A stretch of DNA of 64,000 bases from an uncultured Spirochaetota bacterium (GTDB lineage Bacteria > Spirochaetota > Brevinematia > Brevinematales > JAOACQ01): assembly GCA_963768055.1 (NCBI GenBank), contig CAVYGN010000001.1:1-64000 (forward strand), given 5' to 3'. Under the pieces are notes generated by a model, which worked only from the letters and a program-made list of their open reading frames with translations, had not been told where the DNA came from and ran no database searches. Made by a program: the position numbers and the translations under genes. Of this stretch, positions 3,041 to 9,240 are shown piece after piece (within the stretch, counting starts at the first letter, position 1; the number at the start of each line of letters is the position of its first letter).

Positions 3041-4069
3041 ATGGATATAAGAATAAATATCTGTGACTTGATTAATGAAGCTGTTTCATCAGGATCCAGC
3101 AAGGATAAGGCTTGTGAAGAATCAGGCTATAATATAAGGACCATTCAGCGCTGGGATAAAAATCTGGAGGGAGACAGAAGAAAATTCAGAAAGACAATAC
3201 CTAAGAATGCCCTTTCGGCCGAAGAAAGAGAAGAAATCATTGCTTGCTGCTGCGAAGATAGGTTCATAGATATGACGCCGAATGAAATAGTGCCGTTATT
3301 GGCTGAGGAAGGTCGCTATATAGCGTCAGAATCATCTTTTTACCGTGAACTTAAAGCAAGAGATATGCTGCGCCATAGATGCGAAACGAAGCCTAAAACG
3401 GCAAGGAAAACACCAAGAGAATTGGAAGCGACAGGGCCTAATCAGGTATGGAGCTGGGATATTACTTATATATTAAGCCATATCAAGGGCCAGTATTTTT
3501 ATCTCTATTTGATTGAAGATGTCTGGAGCCGTAAGATAGTCGGCTGGAAAATGCACGAGGAGGAAAGCTCTGAACATGCCGCCAGAATGATGGCTGAGAT
3601 CGGAGAAACTATTGACTTGAAAGGCTTATATTTACATTCTGATAACGGTTCCCCTATGAAAGGGGCTACGATGTTATCGACTTTGCAGAGGCTACAGGTT
3701 ATGCCATCGTTTTCAAGGCCAAGCGTGAGTAACGATAACCCTTACTCAGAATCATTGTTTAAAACATTGAAGTATAATGTTAAATACCCTGGCCATTTCG
3801 AGAGAAGGGAAGCGGCAGAAATATGGATGCAAAATTTTGTAGACTGGTATAACAATAAGCATCTTCATTCAGGGATTGGATATGTAACGCCTGCGCAGAG
3901 ACATGACGGTAAAGATAAGGCAATACTCCTGAAGAGAGCGGAAACTTATGAAATGGCAAAAATCAGGCACCCCGAAAGATGGTCAGGAGAATCTAAAAAA
4001 TGGGAACGAATAGAATCGGTATTTTTGAATCCGAGTAAGACTAACAAGGAATCGTTGATTGCGGCATAA
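3041..4069 (+). CDS. IS3 transposase OrfB (DDE integrase core)
   Basis: PNQVWSWDITY, HSDNGSPM, NDNPYSESLFKTLK, WYNNKHLHSGIGYVTP. Confidence 0.93.
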   Translation: MDIRINICDLINEAVSSGSSKDKACEESGYNIRTIQRWDKNLEGDRRKFRKTIPKNALSAEEREEIIACCCEDRFIDMTPNEIVPLLAEEGRYIASESSFYRELKARDMLRHRCETKPKTARKTPRELEATGPNQVWSWDITYILSHIKGQYFYLYLIEDVWSRKIVGWKMHEEESSEHAARMMAEIGETIDLKGLYLHSDNGSPMKGATMLSTLQRLQVMPSFSRPSVSNDNPYSESLFKTLKYNVKYPGHFERREAAEIWMQNFVDWYNNKHLHSGIGYVTPAQRHDGKDKAILLKRAETYEMAKIRHPERWSGESKKWERIESVFLNPSKTNKESLIAA

Positions 4070-4492: not shown

Positions 4493-5758
4493 CATTGCTA
4501 TCCAAATCAAATTATGAAAAGTTTAAAAGCAATTCAGTTATCGGTTTAGAAGACTTCTGCTGAAACGGAGCATTCAACCAATCCCATAAATTTCTTCTGG
4601 CAAAAGATTAGTCGGAAGAACACGCACAGAAGGTATAAATCGACCATTGAAAACTGGATTTGAATTTCAAATAACTCAACAACAAATAAGCTGATCAAAG
4701 CAACCCATAATTGGGACAGCAGGGCATTTCTGGATGTTCCTATGAAATTCTTTACAATTAATTGCTGTTTGATAGCTTTAAAGAATAATTCTATTTGCCA
4801 CCTGTCTTTATATATTTTTGAGATTGTTAACGTCGACCATTCAAAATTATTTGTTAAGAAAATAACGCCTTTCCTGTTTCAGGATCAACTGACCTTATCC
4901 GCCTCATTTTACCTGGATATATTTTCACGGAATTAAATCCTGTCCATTCAATATCCTGATCCGAGGTAATATTCGGATGTATAGGAACATCAAAGCGTTC
5001 CAAAACCTGTATTGAGAATTGGTTTTTAAACGTGTAACAAAGAATACACCTTTATTATCAAGGGTTTTCAGCCATTTTAATTTATTATAGCCTCTATCAA
5101 AAACAACAACATCGCCTTTTTCAAAAGGGATGGAAGGGGCAACTTTTTGTTCATGAACCTTACCTTCCGTCATAATGACAAAAGAAGGCAGATATCCTGA
5201 ATGATTAAGTTTAACATGTAATTTGACTGCTCCTTTTGTTTTACGAAATGTCGCCCAATTATAGAGAGATAGACACAAGTCAATCGTCGTAGCATCAAGA
5301 CTATAGAGAGGATTTTTAAAACGAAATTATGACGGGGGCAATTTCCTGACATTTGGACAGCATCTGGTTAAATATAGCCTGAAACAGTTCATGACTTCTA
5401 TGCTCATTAGCATAAGCAAGAGTTGAACGGTGAATTGGCTTAATACCAAGATGATAAAGGCGGATGCCTGAGTAGCCAAACCAGCCTCAATACCTCGAAG
5501 ACTGTCCTGTCCGCTAATTGACCAAAAAGCATGGCTGTAAAATGATTCCAAGAACTGAAACCACGTGCATGATACTCGGTTCCTGCTGATTGAACTGCTT
5601 TTTGAAATTCAAATCTCGGAAACATTTGCAATAACTGACCGATTATTGTAGAATTATTCATAAAGCCTAACCTCCTTAGTATATAATGATTTAAGTTTGA
5701 GACCCAAATTATTATCAGGCATGGTTAGGCTTTTTCTAATTTAATTTGGACACGTGTG
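4493..5758 (-). mobile_element. IS4-family insertion sequence with a multiply frameshifted transposase (DUF4372-type N-terminus)
   Basis: MNNSTIIGQLLQMFPRFEF...FSSWNHFTAMLFGQL; WATFRKTKGAVKLHVKL; VVFDRGY; FFVTRLK. Weak inverted ends around TCCAAAT at 4501 and ATTTGGA at 5744. Confidence 0.85.
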
Positions 5759-5954: not shown

Positions 5955-6913
5955 ATGAGTAAGCCAGTAGACATGATCATCGTCATGGAAGTGAACATAG
6001 ATACTATTTCAGATTCTTCTATTTCAGATAATAAAAAGGGGATATGGTCAGTCAGATTGTCGTTTGCAGGACTTTTTCTCACAGCATTAATACAGTTAAT
6101 AGTAGTAATTCTTTCGGGAAGTGTGGGCCTGTTGGCAGATACGATTCACAATTTTGGAGATTCTGCTACGGCAGTTCCATTATTTATAGCTTTTACAGCC
6201 GCCCAGTCGGAAAATACTGCAAAAAGATTCACATTTGGTTTTGGAAGAATTGAAGATTTTGCAGGGATTACAGTCGTTTTAATAATTCTATTAAGTGCTA
6301 TATTTGCCTGTTATGAATCTATTAATAGATTTTTTCATCCTCATAATATTGTTTATTTATGGGCTGTTGCAGCCGCTTCTATCATAGGTTTTATTGGAAA
6401 TGAAGCTGTGGCTTTATTCCGGATAAATGTAGGAAAAGAAGTTGGAAGCGCAGCTTTAATCGTTGACGGTTATCATGCGCGAATAGACGGAATAACTTAG
6501 CCTGGCCGTTCTTATTGGAGCAATTGGAGTTTGGTTAGGTTTTCCTCTTGCTGATCCAATCGTCGGGTTAGTTATTTCTCTTATTATTTTCAGGGTATTA
6601 TGGGATTCGGCAAAGATGGTTTTTTTTCGAGCACTGGATGGAATTGATCCTGATATTATTCGAAGAGATCCGGCAAACTGCTCATCATATCCCGGGTGTT
6701 GTTGACGTAGCTGAAGTCCCGGCCAGATGGATCGGGCATGTACTCCAAGCGGAACTAAATGTATCGGTATTTCCGGATCTAACAGTGGAACAGGGTCATG
6801 AAATAGCAAAAGAGGTGAGGCTTCGGATCCTCGTCAGTCAAAACATATATCAAACGCTATTGTCCATATCGGATCCATGCGATAAATCCGGCGAACAATA
6901 CCATTCCCAGTAA
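5955..6913 (+). pseudogene. Cation diffusion facilitator (CDF) metal transporter, frameshifted
   Basis: SGSVGLLADTIHNFGD, FTFGFGRIED, DGYHARIDG, and the C-terminal ARWIGH...LTVEQGHEIA dimerisation domain, in successive frames. Confidence 0.88.
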
Positions 6914-6951
6914 AGGTCTTATTCATAATTTAAATAAATATTTTAAAATTG

Positions 6952-6980
6952 TTGACATTGCAATTTCAATAAGGTAATAT
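6952..6980 (+). promoter_or_regulatory. Sigma70-like promoter
   Basis: TTGACA-17 bp-TAATAT upstream of the riboswitch and NRAMP gene. Confidence 0.55.
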
Positions 6981-7039
6981 ATAAATAAGCTTGCATGACC
7001 GGATGGTCATAAAGGCTACTGAATTTACGAATAATTTCA

Positions 7040-7097
7040 GGAAGATCAGGTTTTGATACCGGGCCCGTTCGGGTAGCAGCCTTGCTGCGGGACTTCC
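7040..7097 (+). ncRNA. NiCo (czcD)-like metal riboswitch
   Basis: Four-way junction GGAAG-AUCA-GGU..ACC-GG-GCCC..GGGU-A-GCAGC..GCUGC-GGGA-CUUCC with the GAUCAGG, CCGGGC and GGGAC motifs of the NiCo class. It ends 21 nt upstream of a metal transporter ATG. Confidence 0.75.
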
Positions 7098-7118
7098 ACT
7101 TTTTGGAAGGAGATTGCC

Positions 7119-7503
7119 ATGTCTCAAATATTAAAGCCGGTATTAAATTATTTTAGAAACATTCCTGTCTTTTCAGGATGCAAGTTCTGGATTAAAGGAA
7201 TCCCCTTCTCAGAACCTCCCAGTAAACCCTATTAATGATGCCGGCGGAATCACGACTTATACTGCAACAGGCGCCCAATACGGCCTGCACCTGCTCTGGT
7301 TCATGATCGTTCTCGGTCCGGTCGCCTATTATGTCCAGGAGATGACGGTTCGTCTGGGGGCTGTTACCAAGCGGGGACATGCCGAGGCTATATTTTCAGG
7401 CTTCGGCTCTTTTTGGGGATGGTTTTCCCTGCTGGATTTAGTCATTTGCGACTGGCTGACCATGATAACAGAATTTATCGGGATGACTGCGGCCAAAGTT
7501 TGA
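7119..7503 (+). pseudogene. NRAMP-family divalent cation transporter, N-terminal part only
   Basis: NDAGGITTYTATGAQYG...YYVQEMTVRLGAVTKRGHAEAIF...ITEFIGM, which stops abruptly. Confidence 0.8.
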
Positions 7504-7662
7504 GTGAATAGTTATCGGATGACAAAAAGGTCCGGGGTAAAAAACGGGTGAGATTGTTTTATTGATTTATGATTATGTTGGTCAGGGCAAGTAACAATAT
7601 TGATTGACAATTAATGCTGATATCAGGTAATATATTGGATTAAAGGTATCGGAGGTTCCTGA

Positions 7663-7930
7663 ATGAACAAAGGTGAACTCGTTGAATTCCTGGTAGAAAA
7701 GGATAAATTGAGCAAAACTGAAGCTGGAAGAGTTCTCGATTCTGTGATTGAAGGCATCCGAGCATGGCCTGAAGAAAACAAAAGAGGTAGCGCTTGTAGG
7801 TTTCGGGACTTTCAAAGTAGTCGACAAGCCGGCAAGGGAAGGAAGAAACCCGAAAACAGGCGAGAAAATTAAGATAGCGGCAAAAAGGGCTGTATCTTTC
7901 AAAGGTCTAAAAGAATCTGTCGCAAAGTAA
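7663..7930 (+). CDS. hup: DNA-binding protein HU (one apparent frameshift near 7760)
   Basis: MNKGELVE...[16 protein letters not shown] plus [29 protein letters not shown]. Confidence 0.9.
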
Positions 7931-7970: not shown

Positions 7971-9240
7971 ATGGATCTATTTATAATAATCGTTTTCCTG
8001 GCTGGTTATATTTGTATTATATTCGAGCAGCGGCTCAAGCTCAATAAAGCGGCATCTTCTTTAATAACAGGAGGTCTTTGCTGGCTGCTATTAATGATGG
8101 GAAGCGGATCGCATTCAATAGTCCTTGAGAAATTAAGTTCGAGTCTTAGTGAAACGGCCGGGGTTTTATTTTTCCTTCTGGGAGCTATGACGATTGTCGA
8201 ACTCATAGAGTCCCATAAAGGGTTTGATATTATCACAAAAAGGATTAAGGCCAGGAATTCCAGGGTTCTTTTGTGGATAATCGCCTGGATAACGTTTTTC
8301 CTTTCGGCAGTCCTGGATAATCTTACTACAGCAATTGTTATGATAATGCTATTGAGAAAATTGTTTTCAGACCCCGAGGACTGGCTGATATTTTCAGGTA
8401 TTATCGTAATAGCGGCTAATTCCGGAGGTGCCTGGTCGCCTATAGGGGATGTCACGACCACAATGCTATGGATCGATGAAAGGATCACTGCAGGAAATAT
8501 TATATTGCGTCTTTTGTTGCCAAGCATTACAAATCTCATGGTTCCCCTAATTCTTGCTACATTTTTCCTGAAACCAAAAAAGGCCCTTACTATTTCCTCT
8601 ACTGAAAAAGAACAAAGTAAAATAAGGGCGGCTGAAAAAAATATTGTATTTTTCCTTGGGATCGGAGTCCTTGTTTCAGTTCCGGTTTTCAAGATTCTGA
8701 CTGGCCTTCCTCCCTATGTGGGTATTCTTATTGGTCTGGGAGTACTCTGGCTGGTCACTGAAGTTATTCATAAAAACAAGAATGATGAAGAGAAAATGAA
8801 TTTTTCAGTAATCAAAGCGTTAAAAAAAATGGATATGAGTACGATCTTGTTCTTTCTGGGTATTCTCCTTGCGGTATCATCGCTTGAAACTGCGGGTATA
8901 TTGTCGAAACTTGCTGTTTGGGCAGATCAAACTTTCAAGTCAGTTATAATACTGGGACTGTACCGGCTTTCTTTCTGCAATAATAGACAATGTTTCCCTT
9001 GTCGCCGCATCAATGGGAATGTACCATCTTTCAGTTTATCCAACCGACCATTATTTCTGGGAGCTCATTGCTTACTGCACCGGGACTGGCGGAAGCATTC
9101 TGATTATCGGTTCGGCGGCAGGTGTAGCAGTCATGGCGATAAGTAAAATTGAATTCTTCAAGTACCTAAAAAAAATTTCCTGGATATCTCTTTTTGGATA
9201 TGTTTCAGGGATATTAGTTTTTATCTTGTTCAATCACTGA
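7971..9240 (+). CDS. nhaD: NhaD-family Na+/H+ antiporter (apparent frameshift near 8960)
   Basis: FFLSAVLDNLTT, AANSGGAWSPIGDVTTTMLW, YCTGTGGSILIIGSAAGVAVM. Confidence 0.9.

Follow-up and report, generated by a model that had tools for sequence, protein, structure and literature searches.

A compact NiCo-type riboswitch with a predicted translational ON platform ahead of a 38-aa reading frame and a transporter remnant in a Brevinematales genome

The stretch examined here (the window) comprises positions 1 to 64,000 of contig CAVYGN010000001.1, from an uncultured Spirochaetota bacterium of the order Brevinematales (genome G000). Within it, on the + strand, lies a riboswitch locus composed of a promoter-like TTGACA-17 nt-TAATAT element (6952..6980), a leader hairpin (6988..7017), a compact aptamer of the NiCo/czcD class (7040..7097), the Shine-Dalgarno (SD) sequence GGAAGGAG (7105..7112) placed 6 nt upstream of an ATG at 7119, a small open reading frame (sORF) of 38 aa (7119..7235), and the remnant of an NrmT-type NRAMP transporter gene (7234..7500). 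The same operon is present in intact form at 69 kb in this genome, just outside the window, with a 424-aa nrmT, and a sister species of the same genus (G001) carries the same promoter, leader and aptamer. Comparison of these copies, and of related aptamers from other lineages, is consistent with a metal-sensing RNA that controls translation of the sORF.

The 7040-7097 element belongs to the NiCo/czcD class; it is a four-way junction of compact form, and its structure is real. Four helices surround the junction, as in other members of the class: P1 (7040-7044/7093-7097, GGAAG/CUUCC), a 3-bp P2 (7049-7051/7058-7060, GGU/ACC), P3 (7063-7066/7071-7074, GCCC/GGGU) and a 5-bp P4 (7076-7080/7084-7088, GCAGC/GCUGC). 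The junction strings read GAUCA, CCGGGCC, A and GGGAC, and the unpaired junction letters of the consensus (GAUCA, GG, A and GGGA) are thereby complete. The nucleotides reported to contact Co2+ in a NiCo aptamer are A9, G40-42 and G82-83 (10.1101/2025.08.02.668262); mapped through the consensus, they would correspond to the J1/2 A and to the runs of GGG in J2/3 and J4/1, all of which are kept in the window. Relative to the Rfam NiCo model (RF02683), the extra positions are reduced from 19 to 2 in P2 and from 14 to 3 in P4. P3 is closed by a G-U pair in the sister species as in the window, whereas 75 of 78 pattern matches have G-C there, with one doubtful A.

To RF02683, the segment 7032-7097 aligns over the whole model (positions 1-96) with 32.5 bits and an E value of 1.6e-5 (451 nt searched). 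This covariance-model search, which the first-pass annotation had named as a check, thus returned a full-length alignment but a score below the 37-bit gathering score of the family, which is a curation threshold and not a biological feature. Scores under this threshold are ordinary for compact NiCo members: six compact aptamers located before CDF or ATPase genes score 34.7 (L015), 33.8 (L055), 31.7 (L076), 29.2 (L103), 25.8 (L024) and 23.7 bits (L027). So that chance could be judged independently of the window, a model of the compact form, R1, was built from 18 aptamers of other lineages (alignment A5), neither the window nor the sister species being included; the rows of A5 were used because an earlier MAFFT alignment (A4, 32 compact aptamers) had the core misplaced in 13 rows. 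With R1, the window aptamer scores 45.1 bits (83 kb searched, E 5.7e-14) and that of the sister species 43.4 bits. Across the 3.69-Mb genome, the window site is the sole strong match (E 2.5e-12), the next best having an E value of 0.16 (150 of 1600 first-look candidates scored). A search of the whole genome with RF02683 gave no match (150 of 283 candidates scored), but its controls likewise matched in 0 of 14 genomes, and this negative is uninformative.

The sister-species locus, which scores 30.5 bits against RF02683, allows conservation to be followed along the module. Identity to the window is 24/52 in the upstream DNA, 26/29 in the promoter, 51/59 in the leader, 56/59 in the aptamer, 18/21 in the platform and 84/117 in the sORF, and all three aptamer changes fall in loops. 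At the synonymous-site difference measured for the sORF (0.525), the binomial probability of three or fewer changes in the aptamer is 4e-15. By this measure, the aptamer is more conserved than the coding DNA that adjoins it.

With respect to the expression platform, no intrinsic terminator was found on the + strand between 6850 and 7700, and the usual NiCo arrangement, in which a terminator competes with P4 and P1, is absent from the window; the platform does not define the class. What follows the aptamer is an exact 6-bp inverted repeat, CTTCCA (7093-7098) and TGGAAG (7104-7109), whose arms are 5 nt apart. The resulting anti-SD hairpin (7093..7109, CUUCCA/UGGAAG) uses the 3′ strand of P1 as its 5′ arm, represents the OFF state, and is present in the minimum-energy folds of both a transcript modelled from 6988 and the sister-species leader. 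For GGAAG of the SD, the predicted probability of being unpaired is 0.01-0.04 when the ensemble folds freely and 0.49-0.89 once P1-P4 are imposed. The OFF fold, comprising the anti-SD hairpin and P2-P4, is calculated at −15.1 kcal/mol, compared with −13.8 kcal/mol for the ON fold, and the two states are thus nearly balanced. A weak second hairpin (GAGAU/GUCUC, 7110..7125) is predicted at the start codon in the minimum-energy folds and is only partly kept in the sister species. The first-pass annotation had placed a NiCo-type aptamer at 7040-7097, read CUUCC (7093-7097) as a P1 strand that alternatively pairs with UGGAAG and occludes the SD, and assigned the platform to translation rather than termination; the full-length alignment, the R1 score, the complete junction letters, the exact repeat and the absence of a terminator agree with it on each of these points, and the predicted release of the SD upon enforcing P1 extends to six relatives.

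These relatives belong to a set of eight aptamers from three phyla that share the P1 sequence GGAAG/CUUCC: those of the window and the sister species, four from other Spirochaetota loci (L130-L133), one from Chitinivibrionales (L024) and one from Omnitrophota (L089). In the alignment of these eight, the four-helix structure pairs 98.6% of 143 cells, compared with 20-48% when the partner strand is slid. Four pairs are changed on both sides, a number matched by 2 of 500 shuffles, and the covariation score (0.234 versus 0.129) is reached by 0 of 500; this covariation is located in P3 and P4. P1 is invariant within the set and variable elsewhere in the class (e.g., ACUG/CAGU in 25 pattern matches). 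Among 51 aptamers with a well-paired P1, for which terminators were called with our own simple finder, a terminator overlapping P4/P1 is found in 36 of the 43 with another P1 and in one of the eight with GGAAG/CUUCC, where it is weak (−7.7 kcal/mol); the Fisher p value for this contrast is 2e-4, computed over kin that are not independent. In six of the seven set members that have a nearby start codon, the purine run of the ribosome-binding site (RBS) pairs with the P1 3′ zone in the minimum-energy fold. Enforcing P1 raises the mean unpaired probability of the RBS in all seven (from 0.27 to 0.52 in the window; from 0.00-0.29 to 0.32-0.63 in the others). The telling facts for a subclass would be the invariant P1 and its association with the absence of a terminator. 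A translational ON switch, as predicted for the window, is well supported by this comparison.

The gene that the switch precedes is the 38-aa sORF (MSQILKPVLNYFRNIPVFSGCKFWIKGIPFSEPPSKPY), three copies of which are available, from the window, the 69-kb operon and the sister species; they share 21 invariant residues. The ratio of nonsynonymous to synonymous change (dN/dS) is 0.26-0.27 relative to the sister species and 0.13 between the two copies in the genome, for which dS is 0.56. On account of these ratios, the sORF is a protein-coding gene under constraint. The encoded peptide is not strongly hydrophobic. It has no Pfam family and no match in the protein database, where the query was the 52-aa stop-to-stop frame that includes 14 leader residues, or in the ESM Atlas, and it was not found described in the literature searched. 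In 401 Spirochaetota genomes, homologues were found only in G000, at two places, and in G001; four further hits (E 0.001-0.008, 19-21 bits) were taken as chance. Short ORFs and small proteins at the head of or beside cation-transport operons include mgtL/mgtA, MgtS, MntS and KdpF, to which the window sORF is alike in position and without any sequence relation found. In L130-L133, short and mostly hydrophobic ORFs of 20-126 aa, each with its own RBS, lie between the GGAAG-type aptamer and an ATPase or CDF gene. They have no sequence kinship with the window sORF. The succession of switch, short ORF and transporter may be a recurring layout.

The first-pass annotation had taken ATG 7119 as the start of an NRAMP gene under direct control of the switch. 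This ATG instead opens the sORF, which intervenes, and the NRAMP frame is a truncated remnant. Pfam detects Nramp (1.4e-19) over no more than positions 1-82 of the 357-position profile, in a stop-to-stop frame at 7147-7503 that differs from the sORF frame and has no usable start before 7303; the part retained (7234..7500) corresponds to residues 35-123 of 424. The gene is truncated at both ends, with approximately 180 nt between the sORF stop and nrmT codon 35 gone as well as everything past codon 123, and no other piece of this copy was found elsewhere in the genome. Short contigs from four DNA runs of one study, which may be the assembly's own source, match 6911-7102, 7214-7449, 7374-7545 and 7534-7741 exactly; one bridges the 3′ nrmT break, and the contig at the 5′ break has only 20 letters to the left of it.

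The complete arrangement is seen in the sister species, where the aptamer is followed by a 34-aa sORF, a 62-nt spacer, a 424-aa Nramp-family gene with its own RBS, a 58-aa ORF and a gene for a 421-aa PRC/MgtE_N/CBS protein. The 69-kb copy lacks about 25 nt comprising the 3′ part of P4, GGGAC, the 3′ strand of P1 and the anti-SD arm (alignment A1), and bears point changes in P1 and P3; its leader gives no NiCo hit at E values up to 1 and only 12.5 bits with R1. The module was duplicated in this genome: the window copy kept the switch and the sORF, and the 69-kb copy retains the operon without the 3′ half of its aptamer. This provides a natural experiment in one genome, with a switch without its transporter on one side and a transporter without its switch on the other. 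The remnant matches the intact copies at 72-73 of 87 residues (14-15 changes), and the intact copies are alike at 88 of 89. That the nrmT remnant has drifted and the helices of the aptamer have not hints, without proving it, that the switch and the sORF may have been kept for their own sake.

By sequence, the transporter is placed in the NrmT clade, of the Mg2+/Mn2+ type, and not with the generic NRAMP proteins that the first-pass annotation had in mind. Intact NrmT matches EleNRMT, a Mg2+ transporter of solved structure (7QIA), with an E value of 1.1e-60 and 209 bits, compared with at most 55.4 bits for the MntH/DMT structures. When aligned, the intact copies agree with EleNRMT in the motifs NDAGG and GTTIAPW, which are the two halves of the signature described for this clade, DxxG-TxxA/T (PMC8806188), with DxxG in helix 1 and TxxA/T in helix 6; the window remnant keeps only DAGG. 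EleNRMT is reported to transport Mg2+ and Mn2+ without proton coupling (PMC8806188). The efflux role that had been suggested for the NRAMP is unlikely in this light, since without proton coupling the membrane potential would be expected to favour uptake. The alternative suggestion made at that time, of a competing ion, fits best.

The association of a NiCo aptamer with nrmT is confined to this genus within everything searched. A strict core pattern applied to contigs from one genome per species returned 102 stretches, 79 of them with an upstream J1/2-like motif, and Pfam was run on 62 of 77 downstream ORFs, 15 from short loci being left out. Of these 62, 52 are CDF genes and 7 are P-type ATPases; two have no family, and the single Nramp is that of the sister species. 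The exporter that usually lies directly downstream is thus replaced in the window by the sORF and the NrmT remnant. When slightly relaxed, this pattern has a single occurrence each in G000 and G001 and none in 39 other relatives. R1 has greater sensitivity, with matches at E values up to 0.001 in 19 of 151 Spirochaetota genomes; among 14 R1 loci examined outside the genome, seven are credible aptamers, located before CDF or P2-like ATPase genes, and the remaining hits (five tRNA genes and two doubtful ones, one beside a MatE gene and one without a family downstream) were not counted. A pattern scan of metagenomes returned three stretches, of which one is the sister-species locus; the other two were attributed to chance, as they fall within an ORF and the aptamer's 3′ half is absent from them. 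No M-box was found by Rfam in the window, in seven related loci (E up to 1) or in 20 NrmT loci (gathering score). In a locus of another Spirochaetota family (L149, genome G211), NrmT is 76% identical to the 69-kb copy, compared with 71-72% for two species of the same genus. Neither an aptamer nor an sORF match is present at this locus, and nrmT may have been transferred horizontally.

Taken together, these data support a model in which, without ligand, the P1 3′ strand CUUCCA (7093-7098) would pair with UGGAAG (7104-7109) and hide the 5′ part of the RBS. Binding of Fe2+, Co2+ or Ni2+ at the four-way junction would then allow P1 (GGAAG/CUUCC) to form, which would free the RBS and permit translation of the sORF at 7119. 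In the ancestral layout, as in the sister species, the sORF heads an operon of sORF, nrmT, 58-aa ORF and PRC/MgtE-N/CBS gene, and metal excess would lead to more uptake of Mg2+, and perhaps Mn2+, in competition with the intoxicating metal. How translation of the sORF could reach nrmT, 62 nt further on and with its own RBS, is a guess; relief of Rho-type polarity is one candidate. We infer the ligand from class membership; that the switch turns expression on in vivo, how it is coupled to nrmT and what physiological purpose it serves are likewise inferred. As a whole, a compact NiCo aptamer with a translational ON platform that acts on the sORF, and through which metal excess induced Mg2+ uptake in the ancestral operon, is the explanation that we judge somewhat probable.

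Each component of this model is known: the class of aptamer, the clade of NrmT, and platforms that sequester the SD. As described by Xu & Cotruvo (2022, PMC9389577), NiCo/czcD riboswitches (RF02683) have the same four-way junction and junction nucleotides, turn genes on as P1 forms and occur among metal-transport genes. The window differs from them in its 3-bp P2, 5-bp P4, sub-threshold score and G-U closing pair in P3, in the lack of a terminator together with a P1 that serves as both SD mimic and anti-SD, and in its cargo, which is headed by the 38-aa sORF and, in the operon, is an NrmT importer rather than a CDF protein or P-type ATPase. The same source describes a czcD riboswitch before an MgtA-like ATPase in Clostridium cellulolyticum and proposes compensatory Mg2+ import under iron excess; this case is likewise a NiCo-class switch before a putative Mg2+ importer, but of a different transporter family, and its authors call the direction and ion of the ATPase uncertain. 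NrmT genes have been described behind M-box Mg2+ switches and beside an MgtE N-domain gene (Shin et al. 2014, PMC4072509). Those operons share the transporter clade and the MgtE N-domain partner with the present one; their leader is described as a Mg2+-sensing OFF switch with a terminator, whereas here a transition-metal ON switch is proposed and no M-box was found. Competition would make sense of a metal-induced Mg2+ importer: Mn intoxication is reported to be reversed when Mg is added, and Fe2+ to take the place of Mg in some enzymes (PMC11332163). If the model is true, it would provide a second and clearer instance of an Fe/Co/Ni-sensing RNA before a Mg2+ importer, from a transporter family whose ion has been measured, and iron-magnesium antagonism would be directly testable through such a pairing of switch and NrmT. 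No NiCo switch before an NRAMP or NrmT gene was found in the literature searched, which did not cover supplements.

A broader reading, which joins these observations, can be offered only tentatively. According to it, the NiCo/czcD class has a translational subclass, spread over Spirochaetota, Chitinivibrionales and Omnitrophota, in which an invariant P1 of GGAAG/CUUCC acts as both SD mimic and anti-SD. In one Brevinematales genus, this subclass would have been rewired from exporters to an operon of a micropeptide and an NrmT importer, linking transition-metal excess to Mg2+ uptake at the level of RNA. The switch and the micropeptide would have outlasted the loss of nrmT, and the 38-aa peptide may accordingly have a metal-related function of its own. 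Database thresholds miss this compact, terminator-less branch of a known riboswitch class, for which P1 = GGAAG/CUUCC gives a simple sequence rule. The literature searched mentions neither a terminator-less NiCo branch whose invariant P1 mimics the SD nor a translational NiCo switch; the founding paper of the class, which lies outside that coverage, may mention translational members.

Several observations weigh against the model of metal-induced Mg2+ uptake. A default Rfam scan of the window lists no NiCo entry, because its 37-bit cut-off exceeds the 32.5 bits of the aptamer. On the side of the platform, the second hairpin leaves GAG of the SD paired in both the ON and OFF states, P1 is already formed in the minimum-energy fold of a construct that begins at 7040, the anti-SD helix is without covariation, the platform being identical there in both species, and the RBS pairing seen in relatives is partly built in, as any purine-rich RBS complements CUUCC. 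On the side of the cargo, turning on an importer when metal is in excess runs opposite to the usual regulon (52 CDF genes and 7 ATPases of 62), the link between aptamer and NrmT exists in only two of five genomes of the genus (G000 and G001), and of the 21 NrmT-like loci identified in Spirochaetota (20 of 401 genomes) only that of G001 has the aptamer and only the 69-kb copy has its remnant. An MgtA identity for the ATPases linked to NiCo aptamers in Spirochaetota, which would have supplied a second case of Mg import, was rejected: behind three relatives, the best NCBIfam model is a PMR1-type Ca/Mn pump (495-523 bits, below the cut-off of 798), and the proteins look PMR1-like and P2A-like. Finally, the transporter in the window is broken and lacks the complete length of about 420 aa, and the element sits among four disrupted genes and may no longer matter to the cell.

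This last point leads to the reading, which we hold to be unlikely, that the aptamer and sORF are a relic, left over from a duplicated operon in a decaying stretch and intact only as a reflection of a recent break. It would account for the reduction of nrmT to residues 35-123 with no start before 7303, for the CDF gene with its two frame breaks and the HU and CitMHS genes split between frames amid otherwise long window ORFs, and for a functional nrmT operon at 69 kb that does without the aptamer. The remnant's 14-15 changes in 87 codons, relative to 1 in 89 between the intact copies, suggest a long relaxed period, yet the three aptamer differences spare helices and junctions, and the sORF has a dN/dS of 0.13 against its paralogue at a dS of 0.56; moreover, the frame break at 6497 is absent from a short-read contig, such that some of the apparent decay may be assembly error or strain variation. 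The window copy drives only a micropeptide and a broken gene, which lowers the interest of the finding. A further reading places control at the level of transcription, with sORF translation or the aptamer fold governing Rho-dependent termination or mRNA decay before nrmT and with SD occlusion secondary. The absence of an intrinsic terminator, the 62 nt between the sORF stop and an nrmT start that has its own RBS, and the short ORFs that four other Spirochaetota loci carry between a GGAAG-type aptamer and the ATPase or CDF gene would all suit it. Anti-SD pairing accounts more directly for the invariant sequence of P1, and we regard transcriptional control as a minority possibility, though one compatible with the translational model and not exclusive of it.

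It is considerably less probable that the Brevinematales variant senses another ion, such as Mn2+ to match its NrmT cargo. The unusual gene context and the G-U closing pair of P3, whose G belongs to the J2/3 GGG run named as a Co2+ contact, could be read in this way, but G-U is still a standard pair, the junction nucleotides and all six named contacts are kept as mapped from the consensus, and an ON switch that answers an importer's own substrate would constitute positive feedback. As for a chance resemblance, in which an unrelated GC-rich leader happens to fit the NiCo consensus, the score under the Rfam cut-off is what would speak for it; the E value of 5.7e-14 from the independent compact model, the absence of a second such site among the genome candidates scored, the restriction of sister-species differences to loops, and the covariation within the GGAAG/CUUCC subclass effectively refute it already, and its probability is close to nil.

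Upstream of the aptamer, the leader hairpin (6988..7017, inverted repeat I2) is a palindrome with the core ATGACC-GGAT-GGTCAT. The TGACCGGnnGGTCA core, just 3′ of the −10 box, is kept in all three leader copies (window, 6988-7017; L111, ~3745-3775; L112, ~4970-5000), including the 69-kb copy without aptamer. The palindrome could be a protein operator or a 5′ stabilising stem-loop. A complementarity between the leader and P4 (7012-7020 with 7075-7083) is not kept in the sister species and was set aside as chance.

The locus lies within a run of disrupted genes between 4500 and 9300 of the window, elsewhere in which the ORFs are long and whole. Upstream, a CDF gene (5955-6913) requires two frame shifts to be read through. 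At 6497, a short-read contig from a soil metagenome is without one base, and the CDF frame then continues through the next transmembrane helices; the discrepancy reflects an indel in the assembly or else a difference between strains. Another break of the CDF frame, near 6620-6690, remains. Downstream, an HU gene (7663-7930) is split between two frames, and a CitMHS-family gene (7971-9240) is split near 9000. A second promoter-like sequence, TTGACA-18-TAATAT (7604-7633), occurs just before the HU gene and right after the nrmT break point. In the 69-kb region, an intact CDF gene (72385-73245 of contig C1 of G000; L112, 8385-9245) lies beyond the nrmT operon, as does a second HU gene at ~73800 (L112, 9815-10000), which shares 86% identity over 187 nt with the window's broken HU gene. 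The window order of CDF, switch and HU looks like a scrambled echo of this region.

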